A stretch of DNA of 64,000 nucleotides from positions 9,908,261 through 9,972,260 of the forward strand of contig NC_081212.1 in the NCBI RefSeq assembly GCF_902713425.1, written 5' to 3'. The stretch's first letter is position 1. Each line of letters starts with the position of its first letter. Source of the stretch: Acipenser ruthenus (lineage: Eukaryota). Of the stretch, positions 4,583 to 61,214 are shown in pieces. The notes under the pieces are model-generated. The model searched no databases, was not told the origin of the DNA, and was given only the letters and a program-made list of their open reading frames with translations. The position numbers and the translations under genes are program-made.

Positions 4583-4915
<333 letters not shown>

Positions 4916-5045
4916 ATCTCCTGGGCTGCCTGTGGTTATGGGTTCACCTTGCTGTCCTCCAGGACATGTGACCTGACCAAGGTGTGGGGGATGGGACTGA
5001 ACAAGGACTCCCAGCTGGGCTTCCAGCGCAGCCGCAGAGAACGCA
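4916..5045 (+). CDS. rcc1l: RCC1-like protein internal coding exon (ISWAACGYGFTLLSSRTCDLTKVWGMGLNKDSQLGFQRSRRER)
   Basis: AG acceptor at 4914-4915 directly after a 160-bp (TC)n; GTGAGT donor at 5046; RCC1-repeat motif; matches the human RCC1L segment ISSAACGYGFTLLSSKTADVTKVWGMGLNKDSQLGF as I recall it. Confidence 0.85.
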
Positions 5046-10200: not shown

Positions 10201-10211
10201 GTGTCTCTTAC

Positions 10212-11712
10212 TTTATTTAGTGGAGGTGGGCGTGTGTCTGTGTCACACTTTATATAGTGGAGGTGGGTGTGTGTCTGTGTGTCACACTTTATATAGTGGA
10301 GACGGGTGTGTGTCTGTGTCACACTTTATATAGTGGAGACGTGTGTAGTCAGTCTGTCACACTTTATATAGTGGAGACGGGTGTGTGTCTGTGTGTCACA
10401 CTTTATATAGTGGAGGTGGGTGTGTGTCTGTGTGTCACTTTATATAGTGGAGACGGGTGTGTGTCTGTGTGTCACACTTTATATAGTGGAGACGGGTGTG
10501 TGTCTGTGTGTCGCACTTTATATAGAGGAGACGGGTGTGTGTCTGTGTCACACTTTATATAGAGGAGACGGGTGTGTGTCTGTGTGTCGCACTTTATATA
10601 GAGGAGACGGGTGTGTGTCTGTGTCACACTTTATATAGTGGAGACGGGCGTGTGTCTGTGTGTCACACTTTATATAGTGGATACGGGTGTGTGTCTGTGT
10701 CACACTTTATATAGTGGAGACGTGTGTAGTCAGTCTGTCACACTTTATATAGTGGAGACGGGTGTGTGTCTGTGTGTCACACTTTATATAGTGGAGGTGG
10801 GTGTGTGTCTGTGTGTCACTTTATATAGTGGAGACGGGTGTGTGTCTGTGTGTCACACTTTATATAGAGGAGACGGGTGTGTGTCTGTGTCACACTTTAT
10901 ATAGAGGAGACGGGTGTGTGTCTGTGTCACACTTTATATAGAGGAGACGGGTGTGTGTCTGTGTCACACTTTATATAGTGGAGACGGGTGTGTGTCTGTG
11001 TCACACTTTATATAGTGGAGACGGGCGTGTGTCTGTGTCACACTTTATATAGTGGAGACGTGTGTAGTCAGTCTGTCACACTTTATATAGTGGAGACGGG
11101 TGTGTGTCTGTGTGTCACACTTTATATAGTGGAGGTGGGTGTGTGTCTGTGTGTCACTTTATATAGTGGAGACGGGTGTGTGTCTGTGTGTCACACTTTA
11201 TATAGTGGAGACGGGTGTGTGTCTGTGTGTCGCACTTTATATAGAGGAGACGGGTGTGTGTCTGTGTCACACTTTATATAGAGGAGACAGGTGTGTGTCT
11301 GTGTGTCGCACTTTATATAGAGGAGACGGGTGTGTGTCTGTGTCACACTTTATATAGTGGAGACGGGCGTGTGTCTGTGTGTCACACTTTATATAGTGGA
11401 TACGGGTGTGTGTCTGTGTCACACTTTATATAGTGGAGACGTGTGTAGTCAGTCTGTCACACTTTATATAGTGGAGACGGGTGTGTGTCTGTGTGTCACA
11501 CTTTATATAGTGGAGACGGGTGTGTGTCTGTGTGTCACACTTTATATAGTGGAGACGGGTGTGTGTCTGTGTCACTTTATATAGTGGAGACGGGTGTGTG
11601 TCTGTGTCACACTTTATATAGTGGAGACGGGTGTGTGTCTGTGTGTCACACTATATAGAGGAGACGGGTGTGTGTCTGTGTCACACTTTATATAGTGGAG
11701 ACAGGTGTGTGA
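10212..11712. repeat. 37-bp satellite (cactttatatagtggagacgggtgtgtgtctgtgtgt)n, about 40 copies, with a higher-order period of 720-730 bp
   Basis: direct reading; supplied ORF artefacts recur at 719-731-bp spacing (10257/10988, 10420/11139, 10611/11330). Confidence 0.9.
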
Positions 11713-20639: not shown

Positions 20640-21190
20640 GACCACTCTTCGTATGTCGGGTCTCTTCAGCGACGGTGACCCCTCTCCTGTTTGTCGGGTC
20701 TCCTCAGAGATGGTGACCCCTCTCCTGTTTGTCGGGTCTCTTCAGAGACGGTGACCCCTCTCCTGTTTGTCGGGTCTCCTCAGAGATGGTGACCCCTCTC
20801 CTGTTTGTTGGGTCTCTTCAGCGATGGTGACCCCTCTCCTGTTTGTCTGGTCTCTTCAGAGACGGTGACCCCTCTCCTGTTTGTCATGTCTTCTCAGAGA
20901 CGGTGACCCCCCTTCTATGTGTTGGGCCTTCGAAGAGGCGGAGCCCCTCTCTTTATATGTTTTTATATGTACTAACTCCATATTCCTTACTTTCTGGTTC
21001 ACAAGCCTTTTCGTATGTCGGGTCATCTCAGAGACGATGACCTCTCTTCGTATGTCAGGTCTCCGACAGAGACCCCTGTCTTGTTTGTCGGGTCTCCTCA
21101 GTGACGGAACCCCTCTTCTATGTGTTGGGCCTTTGAAGAGGCAGAACCCCTCTCTTTATATGTTTCATCTCTTACTAACTCCATGTTAAA
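20640..21190. repeat. complex minisatellite: about 40-bp unit (gtcgggtctcttcagcgacggtgacccctctcctgtttgtc)n with interspersed 70-bp secondary units
   Basis: direct reading. Confidence 0.85.
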
Positions 21191-29235: not shown

Positions 29236-29301
29236 TCACTGCCCCCCTCCCTTGTTGGTCCTCAAGGCTCCAATCACACTCTGGATGTTCTCTTCTGGAA
29301 C
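29236..29301 (-). CDS. castor2: CASTOR/GATS-like protein terminal coding exon (VPEENIQSVIGALRTNKGGGQ, stop TGA at 29238-29236); 3' UTR continues to lower coordinates
   Basis: minus-strand acceptor TTTGTTAG at 29302-29309; matches human C-terminus VPEDGIGSVIEVLQRRQEGLAS. Confidence 0.75.
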   Translation of the reverse strand, partial: VPEENIQSVIGALRTNKGGGQ

Positions 29302-30257: not shown

Positions 30258-30352
30258 TAACACTCACAAGAGCATGGTCGAATTTGAAGGTGCTGATGTA
30301 GTAGGCAGGAATGTCAGCAGCAGCCAGGGATTCAGATATCTGAGCCACGATC
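30258..30352 (-). CDS. castor2: CASTOR/GATS-like protein coding exon (DECGIVAQISESLAAADIPAYYISTFKFDHAL)
   Basis: minus-strand acceptor CTCTCTCTCAG at 30353-30363, which is also the first unit of the 8.6-kb tandem array; donor GTGAGT at 30257-30252; matches human DECGIVAQIAGPLAAADISAYYISTFNFDHAL. Confidence 0.88.
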
Positions 30353-33300
30353 CCACACTCATCTGAGAGAGAGACAGAGAGGCAGACAATCACACATGAT
30401 CCCACACTCATCTGAGAGGCAGACAATCACACACTATCCCACACTCATCTGAGAGAGAGACAGAGAGGTAGACAATCACACACGATCCCACACTCATCTG
30501 AGAGAGAGACAGAGAGGCAGACAATCACACATGATCCCACACTCATCTGAGAGGCAGACAATCACACACTATCCCACACTCATCTGACAGGCAGACAATC
30601 ACACACGATCCCACACTCATCTGAGAGAGAGACAGAGAGGTAGACAATCACACACGATCCCACACTCATCTGAGAGAGAGACAGAGAGGCAGACAATCAC
30701 ACATGATCCCACACTCATCTGAGAGGCAGACAATCACACACTATCCCACACTCATCTGACAGGCAGACAATCACACACGATCCCACACTCATCTGAGAGA
30801 CAGAGGTAGACAATCACACATGATCCCACACTCATCTGAGAGAGAGACAGAGAGGTAGACAATCACACACGATCCCACACTCATCTGAGAGACAGAGAGG
30901 TAGACAATCACACACGATCCCACGCTCATCTGAGAGAGAGACAGAGAGGTAGACAATCACACACGATCCCACACTCATCTGAGAGAGAGACAGACAATCA
31001 CACACGATCCCACACTCATCTGAGAGAGAGACAGAGAGGTAGACAATCACACACGATCCCACACTCATCTGAGAGAGAGACAGAGAGGTAGACAATCACA
31101 CACGATCCCACACTCATCTGAGAGAGAGACAGAGAGGTAGACAATCACACACGATCCCACACTCATCTGAGAGAGAGACAGAGAGGCAGACAATCACACA
31201 CGATCCCACACTCATCTGAGAGACAGACAATCACACACGATCCCACACTCATCTGAGAGAGACAGAGGCAGACAATCACACACGATCCCACACTCATCTG
31301 AGAGGTAGACAATCACACACGATCACACACTCATCTGAGAGAGAGACAGAGAGGTAGACAATCACACATGATCCCACACTCATCTGAGAGAGAGACAGAC
31401 AATCACACTCGATCCCACACTCATCTGAGAGAGAGACAGAGAGGTAGAGAATCACACACAATCCCACACTCATCTGAGAGAGACAGACAATCACACACGA
31501 TCCCACTCATCTGAGAGAGAGACAGAGAGGTAGACAATCACACACGATCCCACACTCATCTGAGAGACAGAGGTAGACAATCACACACGATCCCACACTC
31601 ATCAGAGAGAGACAGAGAGGTAGACAATCACACACGATCCCACACTCATCTGAGAGAGAGACAGACAATCACACACGATCCCACACTCATCTGAGAGAGA
31701 GACAGAGAGGTAGACAATCACACACGATCCCACACTCATCTGAGAGAGAGACAGAGAGGTAGACAATCACACACGATCCCACACTCATCTGAGAGAGACA
31801 GACAATCACACACGATCCCACACTCATCTGAGAGAGAGACAGACAGACAATCACACACGATCCCACACTCATCTGAGAGAGACAGACAATCACACACGAT
31901 CCCACTCATCTGAGAGAGAGACAGAGAGGCAGACAATCACACACGATCCCACACTCATCTGAGAGGTAGACAATCACACACGATCCCACACTCATCTGAG
32001 AGAGAGACAGACAATCACACACGATCCCACACTCATCTGAGAGAGAGACAGAGAGGCAGACAATCACACACGATCCCACACTCATCTGAGAGAGAGACAA
32101 TCACACACGATCCCACACTCATCTGAGAGAGAGACAGACAATCACACACGATCCCACACTCATCTGAGAGAGAGACAGAGAGGTAGACAATCACACATGA
32201 TCCCACACTCATCTGAGAGAGACAGACAATCACACACGATCCCACACTCATCTGAGAGGTAGACAATCACACACGATCCCACACTCATCTGAGAGAGAGA
32301 CAATCACACACGATCCCACACTCATCTGAGAGAGAGACAGAGAGGCAGACAATCACACACGATCCTACACTCATCTGAGAGAGAGACAGAGAGGTAGACA
32401 ATCACACACGATCCCACACTCATCTGAGAGAGAGGCAGACAATCACACACGATCCTACACTCATCTGAGAGAGACAGAGAGGCAGACAATCACACACGAT
32501 CCTACACTCATCTGAGAGATAGACAGACAATCACACTCGATCCCACACTCATCTGAGAGAGAGACAGAGAGGTAGACAATCACACACGATCCCACACTCA
32601 TCTGAGAGAGAGAGACAGACAATCACACACGATCCCACACTCATCTGAGAGAGAGACAGAGAGGTAGACAATCACACACGATCCCACACTCATCTGAGAG
32701 AGAGACAGAGAGGTAGACAATCACACAGGATCCCACACTCAACTGAGAGAGAGACAGACAATCACACACGATCCCACACTCATCTGAGAGAGAGACAGAG
32801 AGGTAGACAATCACACACGATCCCACACTCATCTGAGAGAGAGACAGACAATCACACTCGATCCCACACTCATCTGAGAGAGAGAGAGAGAGGTAGACAA
32901 TCACACACGATCCCACACTCATCTGAGAGAGACAGACAATCACACACGATCCCACTCATCTGAGAGAGAGACAGACAATCACACACGATCCCACACTCAT
33001 CTGAGAGTTAGACAATCACACACGATCCCACACTCATCTGAGAGAGAGACAATCACACACGATCCCACACTCATCTGAGAGACAGACAATCACACGATCC
33101 CACACTCATCTGAGAGAGAGACAGACAGACAGACAATCACACACGATCCCACACTCATCTGAGAGAGAGACAGAGAGGTAGACAATCACACACGATCCCA
33201 CACTCATCTGAGAGAGAGACAGAGAGGCAGACAATCACACATGATCCCACACTCATCTGAGAGGCAGACAATCACACACTATCCCACACTCATCTGACAG

Positions 33301-36300
33301 GCAGACAATCACACACGATCCCACACTCATCTGAGAGACAGAGGTAGACAATCACACATGATCCCACACTCATCTGAGAGAGAGACAGAGAGGTAGACAA
33401 TCACACACGATCCCACACTCATCTGAGAGACAGAGAGGTAGACAATCACACACGATCCCACACTCATCTGAGAGGTAGACAATCACACACGATCCCACAC
33501 TCATCTGAGAGAGAGACAATCACACACGATCCCACACTCATCTGAGAGACAGACAATCACACGATCCCACACTCATCTGAGAGAGAGACAGACAGACAGA
33601 CAATCACACACGATCCCACACTCATCTGAGAGGTAGACAATCACACACGATCCCACACTCATCTGAGAGAGAGACAGAGAGGCAGACAATCACACACGAT
33701 CCCACACTCATCTGAGAGGTAGACAATCACACACGATCCCACACTCATCTGAGAGAGAGACAGACAATCACACACGATCCCACACTCATCTGAGAGAGAG
33801 ACAGAGAGGCAGAGAATCACACACGATCCCACACTCATCTGAGAGAGAGACAGACAATCACACACGATCCCACACTCATCTGAGAGAGAGACAGACAATC
33901 ACACACGATCCCACACTCATCTGAGAGAGAGACAGAGAGGCAGACAATCACACACGATCCTACACTCATCTGAGAGAGACAGAGAGGCAGACAATCACAC
34001 ACGATCCCACACTCATCTGAGAGGTAGACAATCACACACGATCCCACACTCATCTGAGAGAGAGACAGAGAGGTAGACAATCACACACGATCCCACACTC
34101 ATCTGAGAGAGAGACAGACAGACAGACAATCACACACGATCCTACACTCATCTGAGAGAGAGACAGACAATCACACTCGATCCCACACTCATCTGAGAGA
34201 AAGACAGAGAGGTAGAGAATCACACACGATCCCACACTCATCTGAGAGAGAGACAGAGAGGTAGACAATCACACACGATCCCACACTCATCTGAGAGAGA
34301 GACAGACAGACAATCACACACGATCCCACACTCATCTGAGAGAGAGACAGAGGTAGACAATCACACACGATCCCACACTCATCTGAGAGAGACAGACAAT
34401 CACACACGATCCCACTCATCTGAGAGAGAGACAGTGAGGCAGACAATCACACACGATCCCACACTCATCTGAGAGGTAGACAATCACACACGATCCCACA
34501 CTCATCTGAGAGAGAGACAGACAATCACACACGATCCCACACTCATCTGAGAGAGAGACAGAGAGGCAGACAATCACACACGATCCCACACTCATCTGAG
34601 AGAGAGACAGACAATCACACACGATCCCACACTCATCTGAGAGAGAGACAGACAATCACACACGATCCCACACTCATCTGAGAGAGAGACAGAGAGGCAG
34701 ACAATCACACACGATCCTACACTCATCTGAGAGAGACAGAGAGGCAGACAATCCCACACGATCCCACACTCATCTGAGAGAGAGACAGACAATCACACTC
34801 GATCCCACACTCATTGAGAGAAAGACAGAGAGGTAGAGAATCACACACGATCCCACACTCATCTGAGAGAGAGACAGACAATCACACACGATCTCACACT
34901 CATCTGAGAGAGAGACAGAGAGGTAGACAATCACACACGATCCCACACTCATCTGAGAGAGAGACAGACAATCACACACGATCCCACACTCATCTGAGAG
35001 AGAGACAGACAATCACACTCGATCCCACACTCATCTGAGAGAAAGACAGAGAGGTAGAGAATCACACATGATCCCACACTCATCTGAGAGAGAGACAGAC
35101 AATCACACACGATCCCACACTCATCTGAGAGAAAGACAGAGAGGTAGAGAATCACACACGATCCCACACTCATCTGAGAGAGAGACAGACAATCACACAC
35201 GATCCCACACTCATTGAGAGAAAGACAGAGAGACAGACAATCACACACGATCCCACACTCATCTGAGAGAGAGACAGAGAGGCAGACAATCACACACGAT
35301 CCTACACTCATCTGAGAGAGACAGAGAGGCAGACAATCACACACGATCCCACACTCATCTGAGAGGTAGACAATCACACACGATCCCACACTCATCTGAG
35401 AGAGAGACAGAGAGGTAGACAATCACACACGATCCCACACTCATCTGAGAGAGAGACAGACAGACAGACAATCACACACGATCCTACACTCATCTGAGAG
35501 AGAGACAGACAATCACACTCGATCCCACACTCATCTGAGAGAAAGACAGAGAGGTAGAGAATCACACACGATCCCACACTCATCTGAGAGAGAGACAGAG
35601 AGGTAGACAATCACACACGATCCCACACTCATCTGAGAGAGAGACAGAGGTAGACAATCACACACGATCCCACACTCATCTGAGAGAGACAGACAATCAC
35701 ACACGATCCCACTCATCTGAGAGAGAGACAGAGAGGCAGACAATCACACACGATCCCACACTCATCTGAGAGGTAGACAATCACACACGATCCCACACTC
35801 ATCTGAGAGAGAGACAGACAATCACACACGATCCCACACTCATCTGAGAGAGAGACAGAGAGGCAGACAATCACACACGATCCCACACTCATCTGAGAGA
35901 GAGACAATCACACACGATCCCACACTCATCTGAGAGAGAGACAGACAATCACACACGATCCCACACTCATCTGAGAGAGAGACAGAGAGGCAGACAATCA
36001 CACACGATCCCACACTCATCTGAGAGAGAGACAGAGGTAGACAATCACACACGATCCCACACTCATCTGAGAGAGACAGACAATCACACACGATCCCACT
36101 CATCTGAGAGAGAGACAGAGAGGCAGACAATCACACACGATCCCACACTCATCTGAGAGAGAGACAGAGGTAGACAATCACACACGATCCCACACTCATC
36201 TGAGAGAGACAGACAATCACACACGATCCCACACTCATTTGAGAGGTAGACAATCACACACGATCCCACACTCATCTGAGAGAGAGACAGACAATCACAC

Positions 36301-39003
36301 TCGATCCCACACTCATTGAGAGAAAGACAGAGAGGTAGAGAATCACACACGATCCCACACTCATCTGAGAGAGAGACAGACATTCACACACGATCTCACA
36401 CTCATCTGAGAGAGAGACAGAGAGGTAGACAATCACACACGATCCCACACTCATCTGAGAGAGAGACAGACAATCACACACGATCCCACACTCATCTGAG
36501 AGAGAGACAGACAATCACACTCGATCCCACACTCATCTGAGAGAAAGACAGAGAGGTAGAGAATCACACACGATCCCACACTCATCTGAGAGAGAGACAG
36601 ACAATCACACACGATCCCACACTCATCTGAGAGAAAGACAGAGAGGTAGAGAATCACACACGATCCCACACTCATCTGAGAGAGAGACAGACAATCACAC
36701 ACGATCCCACACTCATTGAGAGAAAGACAGAGAGACAGACAATCACACACGATCCCACACTCATCTGAGAGAGAGACAGAGAGGCAGACAATCACACACG
36801 ATCCTACACTCATCTGAGAGAGACAGAGAGGCAGACAATCACACACGATCCCACACTCATCTGAGAGGTAGACAATCACACACGATCCCACACTCATCTG
36901 AGAGAGAGACAGAGAGGTAGACAATCACACACGATCCCACACTCATCTGAGAGAGAGACAGACAGACAGACAATCACACACGATCCTACACTCATCTGAG
37001 AGAGAGACAGACAATCACACTCGATCCCACACTCATCTGAGAGAAAGACAGAGAGGTAGAGAATCACACACGATCCCACACTCATCTGAGAGAGAGACAG
37101 AGAGGTAGACAATCACACACGATCCCACACTCATCTGAGAGAGAGACAGACAGACAATCACACACGATCCCACACTCATCTGAGAGAGAGACAGAGGTAG
37201 ACAATCACACACGATCCCACACTCATCTGAGAGAGACAGACAATCACACACGATCCCACTCATCTGAGAGAGAGACAGAGAGGCAGACAATCACACACGA
37301 TCCCACACTCATCTGAGAGAGAGGCAGACAATCACACACGATCCCACACTCATCTGAGAGAGAGACAGAGAGGTAGACAATCACACACGATCCCACACTC
37401 ATCTGAGAGAGAGACAGACAGACAATCACACACGATCCCACACTCATCTGAGAGAGACAGACAATCACACACGATCCCACTCATCTGAGAGAGAGACAGA
37501 GAGGCAGACAATCACACACGATCCCACACTCATCTGAGAGGTAGACAATCACACACGATCCCACACTCATCTGAGAGAGAGACAGACAATCACACACGAT
37601 CCCACACTCATCTGAGAGAGAGACAGAGAGGCAGACAATCACACACGATCCCACACTCATCTGAGAGAGAGACAATCACACACGATCCCACACTCATCTG
37701 AGAGAGAGACAGACAATCACACACGATCCCACACTCATCTGAGAGAGAGACAGAGAGGCAGACAATCACACACGATCCTACACTCATCTGAGAGAGACAG
37801 AGAGGCAGACAATCCCACACGATCCCACACTCATTTGAGAGGTAGACAATCACACACGATCCCACACTCATCTGAGAGAGAGACAGACAATCACACTCGA
37901 TCCCACACTCATTGAGAGAAAGACAGAGAGGTAGAGAATCACACACGATCCCACACTCATCTGAGAGAGAGACAGACAATCACACACGATCTCACACTCA
38001 TCTGAGAGAGAGACAGAGAGGTAGACAATCACACACGATCCCACACTCATCTGAGAGAGAGACAGACAATCACACACGATCCCACACTCATCTGAGAGAG
38101 AGACAGATAATCACACTCGATCCCACACTCATCTGAGAGAAAGACAGAGAGGTAGAGAATCACACACGATCCCACACTCATCTGAGAGAGAGACAGACAA
38201 TCACACACGATCCCACACTCATCTGAGAGAAAGACAGAGAGGTAGAGAATCACACACGATCCCACACTCATCTGAGAGAGAGACAGACAATCACACACGA
38301 TCCCACACTCATTGAGAGAAAGACAGAGAGGTAGAGAATCACACACGATCCCACACTCATCTGAGAGAGAGACAGACAATCACACACGATCTCACACTCA
38401 TCTGAGAGAGAGACAGAGAGGTAGACAATCACACACGATCCCACACTCATCTGAGAGAGAGACAGAGAGGTAGACAATCACACACGATCCCATACTCATC
38501 TGAGAGAGAGACAGACAATCACACACGATCCCACACTCATCTGAGAGAGAGACAGACAATCACACTCGATCCCACACTCATCTGAGAGAAAGACAGAGAG
38601 GTAGAGAATCACACACCATCCCACACTCATCTGAGAGAGAGACAGACAATCACACACGATCCCACACTCATCTGAGAGAGAGACAGAGAGGTAGACAATC
38701 ACACACGATCCCACACTCATCTGAGAGAGAGACAGACAATCACACACGATCCCACACTCATCTGAGAGAGAGACAGAGAGGTAGACAATCAAACACGATC
38801 CCACACTCATCTGAGAGAGAGACAGAGAGGTAGACAATCACACACGATCCCACACTCATCTGAGAGAGACAGACAATCACACACGATCCCACACTCATCT
38901 GAGAGAGAGACAGAGAGGTAGACAATCACACACGATCCCACACTCATCTGAGAGAGAGACAGACAATCACACACGATCCCACACTCATCTGAGAGACAAT
39001 CAC
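30353..39003 (-). repeat. 8.6-kb tandem array (about 170 units of 40-57 bp) whose unit is a copy of the castor 3' splice site (polypyrimidine + CAG) plus the first 17 nt of the exon (ATGAGTGTGGGATCGTG = DECGIV); higher-order period about 1.5 kb
   Basis: minus-strand unit atgagtgtgggatcgtg|tgtgattgtctacctctctgtctctctctcag; every supplied minus-strand ORF in the region reads …SDECGIVCDCLPLCLSLR; identical ORFs recur at 1502-bp spacing (34949/36451; 34814/36316/37912 on +). Confidence 0.9.
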
Positions 39004-39629
39004 ACACTGCTTTTTCCACAAAACAAAACAAAACAGCCTTTCAATGAAGAATTAGGAGTGTAGCGATACAATAGTCAGGATACAATACGTATTATACAGG
39101 CTACAATATAATATCACAGTACATATGATGGTCCTCATGGGGTAGTTTTACTGTGATGCATAATAAGATTAAATGATCATTTCCTGACTCATTTGTTAAT
39201 GAAATGAGTTAGGGAGAGTATGTATTCAACCATAACATAGTCTTATTCTTCATTGAAGAAGCATTTGGTGAACTACAGTAAGCTATGTTGTGCTTCTGGT
39301 ATTTTTTGGTCCAGCCTATTCCGATAGAATATATTATGGAAAGAAAGGCTCGTGCATCATCAATATAAGAGGAATCTTGGCCCATGATTGGACTGATATA
39401 TGGCATGAGATTTGAAGATTTTTGGGTTGCTGGTCTCTCGTACTGTTTGGATAATTTAAAACCTGAATGCAGTGGGCAGGCTCATGAGAAAAAAACATAC
39501 GCTGTTACAAAATGACAGCGAGTGTAGCTCACAAAATAATCCCATAACTCCTCTCTGTTGTGCACTTCCATTTTTATATAGGTCTCACGTGTCCACTATT
39601 GAAAGAAAGAAACACTACTGTAATTTTAA

Positions 39630-39850
39630 AATATGATATCTGGTACTACAAACCTCTGTTTGCAAGCCATGCTTTCAGTTAATGTTGCACTTGCTTGGTC
39701 ATTCTAGAGGGTGAAATTCTACCCTTCAATGGCTTCTTTCCTATCAATAAACAATCAGCTGCTTCCCCATTGACTGGTTTGCTTTCAGCCAATAACATGG
39801 CCCAGAAGACACTGCTGAGGTGACCCAGGAAGTACATTATATTTCACAAT
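39630..39850 (+). repeat. dispersed repeat, unknown family (second copy at 54230-54440)
   Basis: two copies share about 75% identity over 200 bp. Confidence 0.4.
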
Positions 39851-40005
39851 GTTTTAAAATGAAAAGAAATGTTAACATTTGTTTCTTTAAAAACATTTGA
39901 CACCTAAATATGGAGTTGATGTTACTATTTTGTTAGCACCAATTCCATTAAGCATTGGAAATTTGTGGGCAAGTTTATAGACATACACAGCCTCGCTCTC
40001 ACTCA

Positions 40006-40088
40006 CCGAAGCCCAGCGGCTGCCCTCCGATCCTCACCATCTTCCAGAGCTCTCCGGAGGCGCTGGTGAAGAGCACGTTAAGGGGGAA
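40006..40088 (-). CDS. castor2: CASTOR/GATS-like protein coding exon (RFPLNVLFTSASGELWKMVRIGGQPLGF)
   Basis: minus-strand acceptor CCCTCAG at 40089-40095, donor GTGAGT at 40005-40000; matches human KFPSDLLLTSSSGELWRMVRIGGQPLGF. Confidence 0.88.
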
Positions 40089-40484
40089 CCTGAGGGAGAC
40101 AGCATGCAGTCATGAGATATGAACACACTGCTGCCGGATATAGAATCAGGATCTACGCAGCTAACTCTGCTGGATCTGAACACCATCCCTGTTAGATTAC
40201 ATACTTAAGCCCTTCAGAAAGGTTGGGGAGTTGGGGGAGCTTTCCCTCAAAATCTGTTCTGATTCTTTCCTGCTTTTTCAGTATAGGCATATGGGAGATA
40301 CCCAGACTGAAAAAGCAGGAAAAAACAACCTTAAAACAGAGACAAGAATTGGAAACAAAATAACATAAAAGATATGTCACTGAAATTTACCTTAAGTTTA
40401 AGCTCAACAAAGGGCATTAATGTCAGCTTATTAATGTCAGAACTTTGTCAATTTGAGTCTTAAAGGACCCCAGTGATTCAGCAT

Positions 40485-41098
40485 TGTGACGAAGTGCCCG
40501 CCCCTGTGTGTATTTTGTGTGTTATGTGTTGTATGTTGCGTGTGTTAATGTTGGTGTATAGTCATTGGTACACGGGATATAAACGGGTCTGTGTTTCACG
40601 TGTATTTAAAAATGTAGATTTGTATTTAGGCACGAGGAGGGCACAAATCACTTCACGTGCTGGTTAAATGTAATATATGAGCACGGGGTTTGCACAGAAT
40701 TAATTCACGTGCTGGGATTCAAGTGAATAATTAATTAGTAATTGAATCCCAGCACAACAGTATATATAGATGCACATTTCTTTCACTCAGGGTTGGGTGT
40801 TCGGTGAGTGGAGAACGGGAGAGAGAGAAGGAGAAAATAAAACAAAGTAAAGTAATTAGAAGTGTTTTCACTCACCGTGTTTGTTCGTCTGTCTGTTTAA
40901 GTGTAGTACGTTTTGTTTGTCTTTTTATTTTGGCGTATAGTGCCGTGTCCCGTGTTTTGTGTTAAAACCTTTTATTTTCTGTGCTGTTTATTAAATGCTG
41001 AGCGAAACCATTCGCTCAGCTCCACCAAACCACACCTCTCTGTCTGTTTATTTCCTGCTTCTGGTCTGACGCCACCGACTCCGGCCGTCTTTGTGACA
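40485..41098 (+). mobile_element. solo LTR (614 bp, TG…CA) of the LTR family at 56766-60419, with 5-bp TSD AGCAT (40480-40484 and 41099-41103); inserted into a CR1-like 3' fragment
   Basis: about 85% identical to the reverse complement of the LTRs at 56766-57377 and 59809-60419; flanking CR1 fragment is contiguous across the insertion (…cagtgattcAGCAT / AGCATcaacaacttaactag…). Confidence 0.8.
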
Positions 41099-54200: not shown

Positions 54201-54602
54201 ATCAAACAAGTCTGTTTATTTTTAAATATCTGGTACTATTCTAGGTTATGAAATCTGTTTGCAGCCATGCTTTTAGACCGTCTTTCACTTCCTGGGTCAC
54301 CTGAGGGTGAAATTGTCTCCGTCCCTTCACCGGATTCTTCCTGTCACTAGCCAACCAGCTGCTCTCCCTATTGACTGACATGCCTTCAGCCAGTAACATG
54401 ACCCAGAGGACACTGCTGAGGTGAAATGACCAAAAAGCAGTAGCAGACTTCCTGGTAGGCAGGGCAAGAAACATGAGAACGTTCTTTAGCCTGTGTGTTT
54501 CAAAAGGAATGTTTGAAACCCATGTAGCTAATGGAAGTGCAAAACGGTAAGATTGATGGAATCACCTTGTTAGCCCTAGAGCTCAGATGAAAGCACCTTA
54601 AC

Positions 54603-55312
54603 ACAGTATTACAAGATGAAGCACACTGTACTACAAGATGAAGCACACTGTATTACAAGATGAAGCGCACTGTATTACAAGATGAAGCACAGTATTACAA
54701 GATGAAGCACACAGTATTACAAGATGAAGCACACTGTATTACAAGATGAAGCACACTGTATTACAAGATGAAGCGCACTGTATTACAAGATGAAGCGCAC
54801 AGTATTACAAGATGAAGTACACTGTATTACAAGATGAAGTACACTGTATTACAAGATGAAGCACACAGTATTACAAGATGAAGCGCACTGTATTACAAGA
54901 TGAAGCGCACAGTATTACAAGATGAAGCGCACAGTATTACAAGATGAAGCGCACAGTATTACAAGATGAAGCGCACAGTATTACAAGATGAAGCGCACAG
55001 TATTACAAGATGAAGCGCACAGTATTACAAGATGAAGCACACTGTATTACAAGATGAAGCACACTGTATTACAAGATGAAGCACACTGTACTACAAGATG
55101 AAGCACACTGTATTACAAGATGAAGCACACTGTACTACAAGATGAAGCACACTGTATTACAAGATGAAGCACACTGTATTACAAGATGAAGCGCACTGTA
55201 TTACAAGATGAAACACACTGTATTACAAGATGAAGCACACAGTATTACAAGATGAAGCACACTATTACAAGATGAAGCACACTGTATTACAAGATGAAGC
55301 ACACTGTATTTG
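54603..55312. repeat. 21-bp minisatellite (gtattacaagatgaagc[a/g]cac[a/t])n, about 34 copies
   Basis: direct reading. Confidence 0.9.
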
Positions 55313-56765: not shown

Positions 56766-59700
56766 TGTCACAAAGACGGCCAGAGTGGGTGGCGTCAGAC
56801 CAGAAAAGGAATACACAGACAGACGGTGGTGATGATGAGCTGAGTGCAATGGCTGCACTCAGCGTTTATTAACAAATAAAAAGGTTTAACAGTACAAAAA
56901 CAGGACACGGCACTGGTAGCCAAAAGAAACATATAAACAAAACGGACTAAACACTAAACAGACGGTGCAGGACAGACAGACGAACACGGCGAGTACAAAC
57001 AACTATTATATTTACGATCTTTTCGCTTTTTAACTCTCCTTCTCCACACCCGTTCTCCACTCCCGAACACCTAACCCTGACTGACTAAAAATGTGCCTAT
57101 TTATACTGTTGTGCTGGGATTCAATTACTAATTAATTATTCACTTGAATCCCAGCACGTGAATTAATTCTGTGCAACCCCGTGCTCACATAATAGATTTA
57201 ACCAGCACGTGAAGTGATTTGTGCTCTCCTCGTGCCTAAATACAAATCTACACTTTTTAAATACACGTGAATCACAGACCTGTTTATATCCCGTGTACCA
57301 ATCTATACACCAACATTTACACACGCAACACGCAACACATAACACAAATGCACACAGGGGCGGGGCGCTTTGCCACATATACCCCCCCTTGTGCGCAGCA
57401 CACATGGCCTCAACGGCCACCTCCCCCCTTAAAAATCCAGCAGTCCAGGACAAAGTCTCGGGCTGGGAAGGGAGGCTTCAGTGGGCCCATGGCTGGCCAT
57501 GCTGTCAGCACCCCTGCCGGTAGTGGCACGGCTGACAGCCTGTTGGTCCCATCCTGCAGCGAAAAAGCTGCGGGGGCAGGTGGTCCCCCGACCTCCCCCT
57601 TCTTCGTAGCCGGCAGCTCCCTCCTGTGGGGCTCCGGCCACAAGACCTCCTGCAGCGAAACTGCTGCTGGGGAAAGTGGTCTCCAGACCTCGTCCCCCTT
57701 CTTTGTAGCCGGTAGCTCCCTTTGGTGGGGCTCCGACCACAGTACTGCCGGCAGCGAAGAAGCTGCAGTGGGAGCAGGTCTCCGGACCTCCCCCACGATC
57801 TCCGGCAGCGAAACTGCTGCAGTGGGAGCAGGTCTCCGGACCTCCCCCACGATCTCCGGCAGCGAAACTGCTGCAGTGGGAGCAGGTCTCCGGACCTCCC
57901 CCACGATCTCCGGCAGCGAAACTGCTGCAGTGGGAGCAGGTCTCCTGACCTCCCCCACGATCTCCGGCAGCGAAACTGCTGCAGTGGGAGCAGGTCTCCA
58001 GACCTCCTCCCCCTTCTTCGTGGCCGACAGCTCCCCTTTCTGGGGCTCCGGCCACCGTACTCCCCGTGGTGGAGGTATGGGAAGCAGAGACAGCTCCTGC
58101 TGTTCTGCTTCTGGCAGTGGCAGAGGCAGAGGCAGCTCCTCTGCTCCTGGAAGTGGCAGAGGCAGCTCCTGCTCCTCTGCTCCTGGAAGTGGCAGAGGCA
58201 GCTCCTGCTCCTTTGCTCCTGCCGGTGTAGGTGGCGGAGGCAGAGGCAGCTCCGGCTGCTCTGCTCCTGCCGTTGTAGGTGGCGGAGGCAGAGGCAGCTC
58301 CTGCTCCTCTGCTCCTGGAAGTGGCAGAGGCAGCTCCGGCTGCTCTGCTCCTGTCGGTGAAGGTGGGAGCAGCGTGTAGTCTCCTGCCGATGGAGGTGGG
58401 AGCAGCGTGTAGTCTCCCCCTTTTTCAGGGGACTGGTGCTGCTCTGCCTCTCTTGCAGCGGACTGGTGCGGCTCTGCTTCTGAAGGGGAAACCAGCAGGC
58501 ATTCTTCCTCTGCTGGTTGTGCTGGGGAAACCAGCAGGCATTCTTCCTCTGCTGGTTGTGCTGGGGAAACCAGCAGGCATTCTTCCTCTGCTGGTTGTGC
58601 TGGGGAAACCAGCAGGCATTCTTCCTCTGCTGGTTGTGCTGGGGAAACCAGCAGGCATTCTTCCTCTGCTGGTTGGGCTGGGGAAACCAGCAGGCATTCT
58701 TCCTCTGCTGGTTGTGATGGGGAAACCAGCAGGCATTCTTGCTCTGCTGGTGAAGGTGGGAACAGCTGCCTCTCAGGCTTCGGATTCCCGCGGTCCCCCC
58801 GTCTGGGCGCTGGACGCTCGCGGTCCCCCCGTCTGGGCGCTGGACGCTCGCGGTCCCCCCGTCTGGGCGCTGGTTCCTCCTCTTCATACTGGGTGGGGCA
58901 TATGGCTAACGTGTGCCCATAAGCCCCACAGCCAGGGCATAACTCTGCTGCGAGGTTCTTTAAAAAAACCTCCCAGCCATCATCCTCGACCTCCTCCCTT
59001 TTGGGCTGTGGACGCCCCGACTCCTCCCTTTTGGGCTGTGGACACTCGGGTTCCCCCCACTCAGGCGTAGGACGTTCGGGTTCCTCCCACTCAGGCGTAG
59101 GACGCTCGGGCTCCTCCCACTCGGGCTGTGGACGCTCAGGCTCCTCCCACTCGGGCTGTGGACGCTCAGGCTCCTCCCACTCGGGCTGTGGACGCTCAGG
59201 CTCCTCCCACTCGGGCTGTGGACGCTCAGGCTCCTCCCACTCGGGCTGTGGACGCTCAGGCTCCTCCCACTCGGGCTGTGGACGCTCAGGCTCCTCCCAC
59301 TCGGGCTGTGGACGCTCAGGCTCCTCCCACTCAGGTACTGGAGAGGGCAGCGACTGCTCCTCTCCCTCTTGCTCACTGGAAGGCATCCCTCCCATGTCTG
59401 CAGCTAGGTAACCCAGCACCACAATGGTGAGGTCACGAACGGATGCCGGGTTGTGCTGTTGCTCCCAGTCCTCCCATCATTTCCCATCTCGCATCTGCAG
59501 TGCGTGAATAACCATGGGGAGGTCACTGGCGAAGTTCCCCTCGGGGTGCACCAGCCAGTCCCATATTTCCCGGGACGGTGGGGAACCCGGTGGCAGTGGG
59601 GGTAGAGGGGTGGCTACTGCCCCGTTGTGGCTGTCCTCCTCCCAGCAGGATGAGGGCTGCAGCTGTTGTTGTTGCTGCTGCTGCTTCTGCTGCTTCCTGC

Positions 59701-60419
59701 AGCTCTTTCTTCCCATCCTCGCTTTACTATTTTTTTTTTTTTTTTTTCACAAAACCCCCTCTCCTGGTCTGACGCTTGGAGGCGCTATTATCCCACGATG
59801 ACACCACGTGTCACAAAGACGGCCAGAGTGGGTGGCGTCAGACCAGAAAAGGAATACACAGACAGACGGTGGTGATGATGAGCTGAGTGCAATGGCTGCA
59901 CTCAGCGTTTATTAACAAATAAAAAGGTTTAACAGTACAAAAACAGGACACGGCACTGGTAGCCAAAAGAAACATATAAACAAAACGGACTAAACACTAA
60001 ACAGACGGTGCAGGACAGACAGACGAACATGGTGAGTACAAACAACTATTATATTTACGATCTTTTCGCTTTTTAACTCTCCTTCTCCACACCCGTTCTC
60101 CACTCCCGAACACCTAACCCTGACTGACTAAAAATGTGCCTATTTATACTGTTGTGCTGGGATTCAATTACTAATTAATTATTCACTTGAATCCCAGCAC
60201 GTGAATTAATTCTGTGCAACCCCGTGCTCACATATTACATTTAACCAGCACGTGAAGTGATTTGTGCTCTCCTCGTGCCTAAATACAAATCTACACTTTT
60301 TAAATACACGTGAAACACAGACCCGTTTATATCCCGTGTACCAATCTATACACCAACATTTACACACGCAACACGCAACACATAACACAAATGCACACAG
60401 GGGCGGGGCGCTTTGCCAC
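56766..60419 (-). mobile_element. young non-autonomous LTR retrotransposon (3654 bp): 611/612-bp LTRs at 56766-57377 and 59809-60419, TG…CA termini, 5-bp TSD ATGCT, PBS-like tggtgtcatcgtgggat next to the 5' LTR, polypurine tract aaggggggg next to the 3' LTR, and a single gag-like ORF
   Basis: the two LTR copies are about 99% identical; TSD ATGCT at 56761-56765 and 60420-60424; internal ORF has a CCHC knuckle CPGCGAYGHTLAIC; no pol. Confidence 0.85.
57410..59422 (-). CDS. gag-like ORF (670 aa) of the LTR element: one CX2CX4HX4C zinc knuckle and extensive internal tandem peptide repeats (PEWEEPERPQ x10, PAQPAEEECLLVS x7, RRPAPTAAVSLPEIVGEV x4)
   Basis: longest ORF in the window; lies between PBS and PPT of the LTR element; overlapping + strand ORFs are alternate-frame artefacts. 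Confidence 0.6.
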   Translation of the reverse strand: MVLGYLAADMGGMPSSEQEGEEQSLPSPVPEWEEPERPQPEWEEPERPQPEWEEPERPQPEWEEPERPQPEWEEPERPQPEWEEPERPQPEWEEPERPQPEWEEPERPTPEWEEPERPTPEWGEPECPQPKREESGRPQPKREEVEDDGWEVFLKNLAAELCPGCGAYGHTLAICPTQYEEEEPAPRRGDRERPAPRRGDRERPAPRRGDRGNPKPERQLFPPSPAEQECLLVSPSQPAEEECLLVSPAQPAEEECLLVSPAQPAEEECLLVSPAQPAEEECLLVSPAQPAEEECLLVSPAQPAEEECLLVSPSEAEPHQSAAREAEQHQSPEKGGDYTLLPPPSAGDYTLLPPSPTGAEQPELPLPLPGAEEQELPLPPPPTTAGAEQPELPLPPPPTPAGAKEQELPLPLPGAEEQELPLPLPGAEELPLPLPLPEAEQQELSLLPIPPPRGVRWPEPQKGELSATKKGEEVWRPAPTAAVSLPEIVGEVRRPAPTAAVSLPEIVGEVRRPAPTAAVSLPEIVGEVRRPAPTAAVSLPEIVGEVRRPAPTAASSLPAVLWSEPHQRELPATKKGDEVWRPLSPAAVSLQEVLWPEPHRRELPATKKGEVGGPPAPAAFSLQDGTNRLSAVPLPAGVLTAWPAMGPLKPPFPARDFVLDCWIFKGGGGR

Positions 60420-61214
60420 AATGCTATATTGGGAAACCATACTGTACAGCAACTTGCATTTAGACCTTCTAATCTTCTGTTTTTATTTCCCAGAGTGGTT
60501 TAAGTGTGGTAACAATCAAACTGATATTATCAGAACCTCATTAACTCCCATTATATTCTGTCCAGGACATTTTAATGCGGTGATAAGAAGCAGAGTGACA
60601 TTAAGTGATATTAAGAATGGTCAAGATACAAACTGTCAGACAGGCCCTCCAATTTGAACCACAGCTACATACATCTCATTATTCATGGATTGTTTTTGGT
60701 CTGGTATTGCCATAGAAGAAGGATTCTGTAAAACATTTATTTGCAAACCAAACTTCCTGCTTGATAAATGTACCGGCACCTGTTTCACAACACCAGGGTT
60801 TCAGTAGCCATGGTGACAAATAAAGGTCACCTGACAACCAGACTGTAATGGCAATGATTCACTCTGCACACACAAACACACAGAAAACTGCCTGGCAGTA
60901 AATTTGACCTGGTGGTTACAACTGAGGGACTGAGGGAGACAGTGTGGCCTACTGTTTTCAACAGAGGGGTTGGGAGGGAGGAAATGCGGCCTAGAGGTTA
61001 GATTTTAGTGACTGAGAAGAAAGCAGTGTTGTAATTCAAGCTGAGGGACTAAAATGTTTAAAGCGACCCGTAAAATGCATTAATCCGTTAAAATGAAAAT
61101 ACAGGTTTGCTAGAATGAGTTTCTTTCAAAACTGCACACTTGAGACCTATGTAGCTAATGGAAGTGCATGACAGGGAAGACTTTTGAAATTATTTTGGTA
61201 GGTACACTTTAGGG

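Follow-up and report, generated by a model that had tools for sequence, protein, structure and literature searches.

A giant, ancient mirage of 3' splice-site copies in the castor2 gene of Acipenser ruthenus

Minisatellite-like tandem duplications that span an intron-exon boundary, called mirages, are known from amphioxus, where they occur in Adh3, the globin genes BflGb6 and BflGb9, troponin C and PGBD5; in BflGb6 the 3' end of an intron is repeated together with the 5' part of the next exon, and the splice signals of these genes are reiterated while the mRNA is spliced normally (PMC3087553, PMC3902484). In amphioxus an array comprises 2-6 units, which measure 150-160 bp in the globins and 10-72 bp in Adh3; the arrays are unstable in length and evolve in concert, with their edges excluded from homogenisation (PMC3087553). 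Human boundary-spanning minisatellites are found in F7 (a 37-bp variable number tandem repeat in IVS7), IFI6/6-16, CBS (IVS13), LMNB2 and PDGF (intron 4); in these, identical pseudo-sites (4-8 in F7, 25 in IFI6), functional but silent, come after the authentic site, use is confined to the site nearest the exon or to the first two or three sites, the repeats are length-polymorphic, and splicing is unaffected by the F7 minisatellite (PMC1557585). Here we analyse a 64,000-nt stretch of the Acipenser ruthenus genome (contig NC_081212.1, positions 9,908,261 to 9,972,260; hereafter the window, in whose numbering all coordinates are given), in which an intron of castor2 is filled by copies of its own 3' splice site and of the start of the following exon. 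An initial annotation of this DNA had regarded such an amplification as apparently undescribed, which the amphioxus mirages and the human F7, IFI6, CBS, LMNB2 and PDGF repeats contradict (PMC3087553, PMC3902484, PMC1557585); the castor2 array is a giant, ancient, vertebrate, 3'-side case of this rare but known repeat type.

The castor2 gene occupies the minus strand, and seven of its exons lie within the window, all with GT-AG borders and an intact reading frame according to tblastn and translation. These exons and the parts of the array-bearing intron are, in the order of transcription and with splice junctions marked by a slash:

about 53733-53540, minus strand: castor2 exon
46463-46331, minus strand: castor2 exon
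45436-45313, minus strand: castor2 exon
42003-41893, minus strand: castor2 exon
40007..40089, minus strand: castor2 exon upstream of the array intron, 83 nt, ending in ...RFPLNVLFTSASGELWKMVRIGGQPLGF + G (tblastn, translation, match to sturgeon transcript contigs)
40001..40006, minus strand: 5' splice site GTGAGT of the array-bearing intron (TTCG/GTGAGT; from the sequence, approximate position-weight score +4.3 bits)
39008..40006, minus strand: 5' portion of the intron, about 1 kb of unique sequence, with homologous sequence in the other sturgeon loci and in paddlefish
30363..39007, minus strand: array, consisting of the ancestral intron tail (gtgtgtgattgtctctcag) and then 196 units (Tandem Repeats Finder and unit parse)
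34306..37278, minus strand: higher-order block duplications of about 1.34-1.50 kb, roughly 30 units (unit-type string and long exact repeats)
30268..30362, minus strand: authentic castor2 exon behind the array, 95 nt, DECGIVAQISESLAAADIPAYYISTFKFDHAL (PDB match, transcript junction, single-copy junction in Albula)
30262..30267, minus strand: 5' splice site GTGAGT of the authentic exon (from the sequence and position-weight scoring)
29236..29301, minus strand: last castor2 exon, coding part, VPEENIQSVIGALRTNKGGGQ and stop codon (translation); the junction into it is the reference point for the nonsense-mediated decay (NMD) rule

The exon at 40007..40089 ends in phase 1 and supplies the G of an Asp codon completed across the array intron, and the acceptor AG of the authentic exon is at 30364-30363. 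The authentic exon had initially been placed at 30352-30258, which is 10 nt off, and the 3' edge of the array shifts likewise.

As to the identity of the gene, the exon behind the array matches human CASTOR2 at 31 of 32 residues (PDB 9kpb, residues 277-308), the match to CASTOR1 (5i2c) being weaker, and 268 residues encoded in the window occur exactly in A. ruthenus XP_033904877.1, annotated "castor2-like". The gene first described as an arginine-sensor castor is thus castor2, not the arginine-binding CASTOR1. Chantranupong et al. reportedly showed in 2016 that CASTOR1 is the arginine-binding sensor and that CASTOR2 binds GATOR2 with no response to arginine, so that the label "arginine sensor" overstates the role of the window gene. 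Against its orthologue in Huso huso the window gene has five synonymous and two non-synonymous differences and no defects (ratio of non-synonymous to synonymous differences, pN/pS, 0.13, at low power), which appears to show that its coding sequence is under purifying selection. Sturgeons have two castor2 paralogues each. Those of A. oxyrinchus (loci L001 and L013 in the list further below) are closer to each other (synonymous differences, pS, 0.026) than to the window copy (0.06-0.09), as would fit either late, lineage-specific rediploidisation or gene conversion; orthology of the castor2 paralogues across sturgeons is therefore not one-to-one, and A/B labels are unsafe between species.

The intron between 40007 and 30362 measures 9,644 nt, 90% of which is taken up by the tandem array. 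Tandem Repeats Finder detects a single array (30346-38996, period 49, 196.5 copies, score 9295), and the unit parse finds 197 unit starts, i.e. 196 head-to-tail copies, referred to below as decoys, plus the real exon. Both bear out the original description of an intron filled by copies of the adjoining exon start and 3' splice site, with the correction that about 170 units of 40-57 bp become 196 units of 35-49 nt. The most frequent lengths are 49 (76 units), 41 (48) and 37 nt (37), and there are 50 distinct variants. On the transcript strand a unit comprises ATGAGTGTGGGATCGTG, identical to the first 17 nt of the exon and encoding the conserved D-E-C-G-I-V, then TGTGATTGTCT, a CU-rich tract of variable length and a final CAG; the stretch after the exon-derived 17 nt is GU-rich and carries the only well-placed branch-point adenosine. 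The commonest unit, ATGAGTGTGGGATCGTG+TGTGATTGTCTACCTCTCTGTCTCTCTCTCAG, is exactly the one first reported, and the real exon is indeed simply the last unit of the array (...ctctctctcag/ATGAGTGTGGGATCGTGGCTCAG). Nearly all variation among units is in the length of the CT tract, the first ~28 nt being almost invariant. The earlier suggestion that every unit is a plausible acceptor holds for the 187 of 196 decoys that keep the CAG and fails for the other nine, which have TCA (6), CAA (2) or CTG (1). The sequence of the real acceptor from -20 to +3 recurs in 58 decoys, from -30 to +17 in 16 and from -49 to +17 in 3.

The unit was not found anywhere else in the window when the sequence outside the array was searched, and an Rfam scan of the window gave no matches. 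Origin from a dispersed satellite or transposon was rejected, given the absence of the unit elsewhere in the window and the ancestral coding nature of its exon part. The array is a boundary-spanning minisatellite, or mirage: it is tandem and head-to-tail, each unit joins intron and exon sequence of one boundary, the terminal unit runs into the real exon, the splice signal is reiterated, and comparison between loci shows that the array is unstable in length and evolves in concert while its edges are conserved. It differs from the amphioxus mirages in its vertebrate host, its 196 units (8.6 kb) and its order-wide presence since before the sturgeon-paddlefish split. Unlike the human minisatellites, which repeat the 5' splice site at the start of an intron, it repeats the 3' splice site, branch-point region and polypyrimidine tract at the intron end, in about 8-40 times more copies.

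Besides the window, eight castor2 loci of Acipenseriformes were fetched and parsed, nine in all; the sturgeon counts cover seven loci including the window. The same array is present in each of the eight. The decoy counts are:

A. oxyrinchus CM060270 (L013): 6 decoys
Huso huso CM072688 (L010): 9 decoys
A. oxyrinchus CM060272 (L001): 14 decoys
Huso huso CM072685 (L012): 16 decoys; orthologue of the window, flanks 96-99% identical
A. sinensis (L018): 29 decoys, 1.3 kb
A. sinensis (L017): 74 decoys, 2.9 kb, with 67 identical 39-nt units
Polyodon spathula (L011): at least 11 decoys of 43-nt units, then a 500-N gap in the array; last two exons missing
Window: 196 decoys, 8.6 kb

The array is absent from the teleost Albula, where the orthologous intron is about 390 nt long and ends once in ...ctgttctgtaccag/ATGAGTGTGGTATTGTGGCTCAG. 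In Albula the exon start (ATGAGTGTGG-AT-GTGGCTCAG) is part of the coding sequence and occurs once, so that the 17-mer is ancestral coding sequence and copying went from the exon to the array. The 5' array edge (aaaagcagtgtgtgatt...; ...ggaaaaagcagtgtgtgattg) is homologous in seven of the eight other loci, the exception being L018, where a deletion took the edge along with some 190 bp of the unique intron part. Several loci have preserved, at the array edge, an old first unit with gactatccctgt, which also forms the flank in paddlefish; at the other end, the window and its Huso orthologue agree fully in their last three units. The dominant unit differs by locus, with 43 nt in paddlefish and 39 nt in A. 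sinensis. Such locus-specific dominant units look like the signature of concerted evolution by unequal exchange from which the array edges have been left out, and a single origin of the array before the sturgeon-paddlefish split would be the parsimonious reading of the compared sequences. That split has been placed about 80 million years after a genome duplication dated to much more than 200 million years before the present (PMC10199039). The description of the locus as expansion-prone is sustained by the range of 6 to 196 decoys across the sturgeon loci, copy number differing 12-fold between the window and its Huso orthologue and 30-fold overall.

Several of these loci have peculiarities of their own. 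In L017 (VSKV01002166.1, 65121-69825) the deposited model P0080 (448 aa) goes wrong right after …GGQPLGF, with the real exon present behind 74 decoys; the 67 identical 39-nt units of this locus are one variant lacking CGTGTGTGAT, and their uniformity reflects either a very recent expansion or a consensus-collapsed stretch. In L010 (CM072688.1) the exon homologous to 53733-53540 of the window is 10 nt shorter than at the other loci and the corresponding stretch of P0002 is frameshifted (GKLCFEKGAACVRVSVWLRQQ), owing either to an assembly indel or to damage of this paralogue.

The 8.6-kb length of the window array rests on one assembly. It may be asked whether a real array has been lengthened by over-expansion or mis-joining of long reads, since no more than 16 decoys are present at the Huso huso orthologue, assembly is made difficult by exact repeats as long as 579 bp at offsets of 1.3-2.8 kb, and the paddlefish assembly breaks inside the homologous array (L011 57229-58214, CM030290.1). 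We regard this as quite unlikely. The window array contains no Ns, both of its flanks are colinear with other species, and its higher-order structure is ordered, with variants that have diverged rather than being scattered at random: blocks of about 30 units are present at least three times, with exact matches of 579 bp at offset 1502, 550 bp at 2844 and 422 bp at 1342. Moreover, the independent assembly of A. sinensis has 74 and 29 decoys, which shows that large expansions do occur at castor2. A large size is credible given the 2.9 kb in A. sinensis and the assembly break in paddlefish.

With respect to the use of the splice sites, eight contigs assembled from public RNA-seq data encode full-length sturgeon castor2, and all eight read GGGCTTCG/ATGAGTGTGGGATCGTGGCTCAG with no array sequence. 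These contigs are 94-98% identical to every genomic locus fetched and are assignable to no single paralogue, copy or species, so the exon boundary is confirmed for sturgeon castor2 in general, and the window copy presumably shares it. The likeness to amphioxus mirages in being spliced normally thus comes from related sturgeon transcripts. A junction-peptide search for decoy-spliced open reading frames (ORFs) brought up nothing but short read-through ORFs of genomic origin in other species, and the 90% cluster of the full-length protein contained no transcript-derived truncated form, both searches having limited sensitivity. The paddlefish RefSeq protein XP_041092465.1, which ends in ...GFDECGIVCDCLPVSLR and a stop, was considered as proof of decoy splicing and rejected as an annotation artefact. 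It ends inside a decoy unit (…DECGIVCDCLPVSLR and stop), at the stop codon and with no untranslated region, and picks the only unit reading ATCGTG; its termination in a decoy is explained by the 500-N gap inside the array and the missing last two exons.

What a decoy would yield if spliced can be read from the units. It had been proposed that any decoy would be read as DECGIVCDCLPLCLSLR and then a stop; a premature stop does follow in all 187 AG-bearing decoys, while that exact reading belongs to the 49-nt type (42 units) and other unit types give other tails. In each computed case the distance from the stop to the last exon-exon junction downstream is 91 nt or more. By the customary 50-55-nt rule for NMD, decoy-spliced transcripts would be its substrates. 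By an approximate position-weight scoring, the GTs inside a unit lie between -1.3 and -9.8 bits and the two real donors at +4.3 and +2.6, and AGGT does not occur anywhere in the window array. Without a donor-like GT and without AGGT, the decoys are orphan acceptors that can neither define exons nor act as recursive sites. The donor at 30262..30267 is the only credible one downstream of all decoys.

These properties bear on the idea that the units are recursive splice sites or alternative micro-exons, serving stepwise removal of the intron or adding protein repeats. The exon start ATGAGT is one base off the donor consensus GTGAGT, and in one A. oxyrinchus paralogue (L013, CM060270.1, ~59956) the last decoy starts with GTGAGTGTGGG instead of ATGAGTGTGGG and so reads ctctctcag/GTGAGT, a variant absent from the window. 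This would be a textbook recursive splice site as judged from its letters, regenerating the upstream donor (CAG/GTGAGT) if used. Recursive splice sites (ratchet points) and NAGNAG acceptors resemble the castor2 array in having juxtaposed or reiterated acceptor signals in one intron. Recursion, however, needs AG/GT, of which the window array has none; NAGNAG acceptors lie 3 nt apart and in frame, whereas the castor2 acceptors lie 35-49 nt apart and are out of frame or lead into a stop. With no AGGT, no unit GT scoring as a donor and a stop codon met by every decoy usage, recursive splicing and micro-exons in the window are essentially refuted, and we give this idea next to no chance.

A different function, as a splicing sink or attenuator, is suggested by the completeness of the units. 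Decoys might bind U2AF and the U2 small nuclear ribonucleoprotein (U2 snRNP), or PTB on their CUCUCU tracts, without completing exon definition, and might thereby slow or block removal of the intron or divert transcripts to NMD, in which case copy number would set the output of a castor2 paralogue. Each unit is a complete 3' splice-site module with the AG intact in 187 of 196; in 58 decoys the 23-mer on which splice-site scoring relies is the same as at the real site; all nine acipenseriform loci have the array, which was never lost; and gene-prediction pipelines were derailed at it in paddlefish and A. sinensis. Decoy splice sites do promote intron retention in other genes, and decoy exons such as those in SF3B1 intron 4 and OGT share with the castor2 units that they are intronic sites unused productively that could engage the splicing machinery (PMC6097662, PMC7373989). 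The described decoy exons, however, need a 3' and a 5' splice site (PMC6097662, PMC7373989), and no such pair is found in a unit that lacks a donor-like GT; they are also single, conserved and cryptic, whereas the castor2 units are not individually conserved. Decoy exons cause intron retention, while the castor2 transcript contigs show the spliced form only, with canonical junctions in all eight and no transcript-derived decoy-terminated ORF in the protein collection. Copy number varying 30-fold between loci and 12-fold from the orthologue is unlike a tuned element, the units are homogenised per locus rather than conserved, an unrelated mirage next door in RCC1L points to a mutational process rather than anything peculiar to castor2, and amphioxus mirages leave splicing undisturbed (PMC3087553). 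We therefore consider a functional sink unlikely. Its more specific form, a copy-number-dependent attenuator in which orphan acceptors keep U2AF/U2 or PTB bound to the nascent intron and send to NMD or nuclear detention a share of transcripts that depends on unit number, seems to us distinctly unlikely. If it were true, the increase from about 16 to 196 units would have turned down the window paralogue of castor2, and repeat length would act as a "volume control" in the dosage rebalancing of duplicates after the sturgeon genome duplication.

The explanation that we favour, and consider probable, is that the array is an ancient, unstable mirage that splicing ignores, with NMD as a backstop: a tolerated, expansion-prone mutational by-product and not an evolved regulator. 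A tandem duplication may have occurred in the common stem of sturgeons and paddlefish, copying a stretch of about 40-49 bp across the castor2 3' splice site: the final ~30 nt of the intron, which contain branch-point region, CU-rich tract and AG, together with the first 17 nt of the exon. The copied exon part ends at ...ATCGTG/GCTCAG, and the copied intron-tail part begins after ...gcaGTG/TGTGATTG (slashes here marking breakpoints); both breakpoints thus follow GTG, which fits slippage or microhomology-mediated tandem duplication. Copies would have been gained and lost ever since through CT-dinucleotide slippage and unequal exchange of multi-unit blocks, and the window copy would have ballooned to 196 units (8.6 kb) via block duplications of ~1.3-1.5 kb. 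The repeated blocks of ~30 units with long exact matches indicate that the jump from tens of units to 196 came about by block duplication and not by unit-by-unit slippage.

Under the same explanation, mRNA is probably made from the exon-proximal last AG, in the window copy as in the related sturgeon transcripts that show this junction. Splicing normally takes the first AG that lies downstream of the branch point, AGs being kept out of the interval (PMC1431707). Two AGs are present in every unit (cAG/atgAGtg), and with AG exclusion the branch point for the real AG must therefore lie in the last ~44 nt, where the best-placed adenosine is the A of TGTGATT, about 28 nt upstream. Since the branch point is confined to the last unit, choosing the acceptor amounts to choosing one of 197 equivalent modules of branch point and tract, and the last module is distinguished only by the sequence past +17, i.e. 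the exon body and the donor at 30267. Exon definition would pick the last unit, the only one with the remainder of the exon and then a strong 5' splice site behind it; the human F7, IFI6 and CBS minisatellites present a parallel. Erroneous decoy-spliced transcripts would carry a premature stop and be removed by NMD, and the array could persist selfishly at no more than a small cost. In a local fold the real AG is unpaired with 0.85 against 0.01-0.58 for decoy AGs, tract accessibility being similar; RNA accessibility was set aside as an explanation, being too model-dependent, and is not used here.

Some observations weigh against a passive, ignored mirage. The transcript contigs are unassignable to the window copy, so that correct splicing past its 196 decoys is an extrapolation. 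With 58 decoys matching the real site from -20 to +3 and 16 from -30 to +17, the nearest decoys should compete under simple exon definition, which is a puzzle for simple models. The first decoy is only 1 kb from the 5' splice site, and all decoys are transcribed before the real acceptor, the first one minutes earlier. The array has been kept in nine of nine loci since before the sturgeon-paddlefish split, none having collapsed to one copy, and this universal retention could reflect selection rather than inertia and possibly a hidden function. Finally, 95% of decoys keep the AG, and recent amplification would give the same result.

The convergent neighbour of castor2, RCC1L, contains a second, independent mirage, and the window has further repeats:

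4592..5045, plus strand: RCC1L mirage, consisting of (CT)77, three decoys and then the exon (sequence, PDB match, paddlefish repeat)
10210-11711: minisatellite, 37 bp x 40
20640-20910: minisatellite, 38 bp x 7
54601-55310: minisatellite, 22 bp x 32, in a castor2 intron, 870 bp from the next exon
58991-59332: minisatellite, 30 bp x 11

The RCC1L decoys, at 4750-4915, are 58, 54 and 54 nt long, and each has a CT-rich tract, an AG and, from the exon, its first 39 nt (ISWAACGYGFTLL...). They are followed at 4916-5045 by the real exon (ISWAACGYGFTLLSSRTCDL...; ISWAACGYGFTLLSSRTCDLTKVWGMGLNKDSQLGFQ), which matches human RCC1L (PDB 5xgs, residues 78-114, E = 4.7e-16). The two 54-nt decoys are in frame and stop-free, and their use would add ISWAACGYGFTLLSLSFQ; transcript-derived RCC1L proteins of other species (P0147, P0148) have the repeated motif only once. 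The RCC1L repeat is also present in a paddlefish contig (L016, ~125-345). Two CT-rich boundary-spanning repeats in neighbouring genes argue for a recurrent mutational product that is tolerated by slowly evolving genomes. The 38-bp repeat, which contains tcttcag, was considered as a third mirage and rejected for want of a link to an exon; none of the 37-, 22-, 30- and 38-bp minisatellites of the window was seen to touch an exon boundary.

Minisatellites are plentiful in the region of the window as a whole. The castor2 introns further contain three copies (40485-41098, 56766-57377 and 59809-60420) of a dispersed repeat some 610 bp long, which is probably a transposable element and recurs in the Huso locus L010.

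On present evidence the locus reveals no new regulatory mechanism. As a practical warning, the array breaks assemblies, as in paddlefish, and derails gene models, as in paddlefish RefSeq castor2 and A. sinensis. Its wider bearing is on the question of how the spliceosome settles on a single 3' splice site and branch point when identical ones compete: with up to 196 acceptor modules ahead of one real exon, castor2 could be a natural test system for the choice of the 3' splice site, as the human F7 minisatellite is for that of the 5' splice site, and the paralogues and species provide a ready-made dose series of 0 (teleost), 6, 9, 14, 16, 29, 74 and 196 decoys. Together, castor2 and RCC1L show that mirages occur in vertebrates and can last for well over 100 million years.

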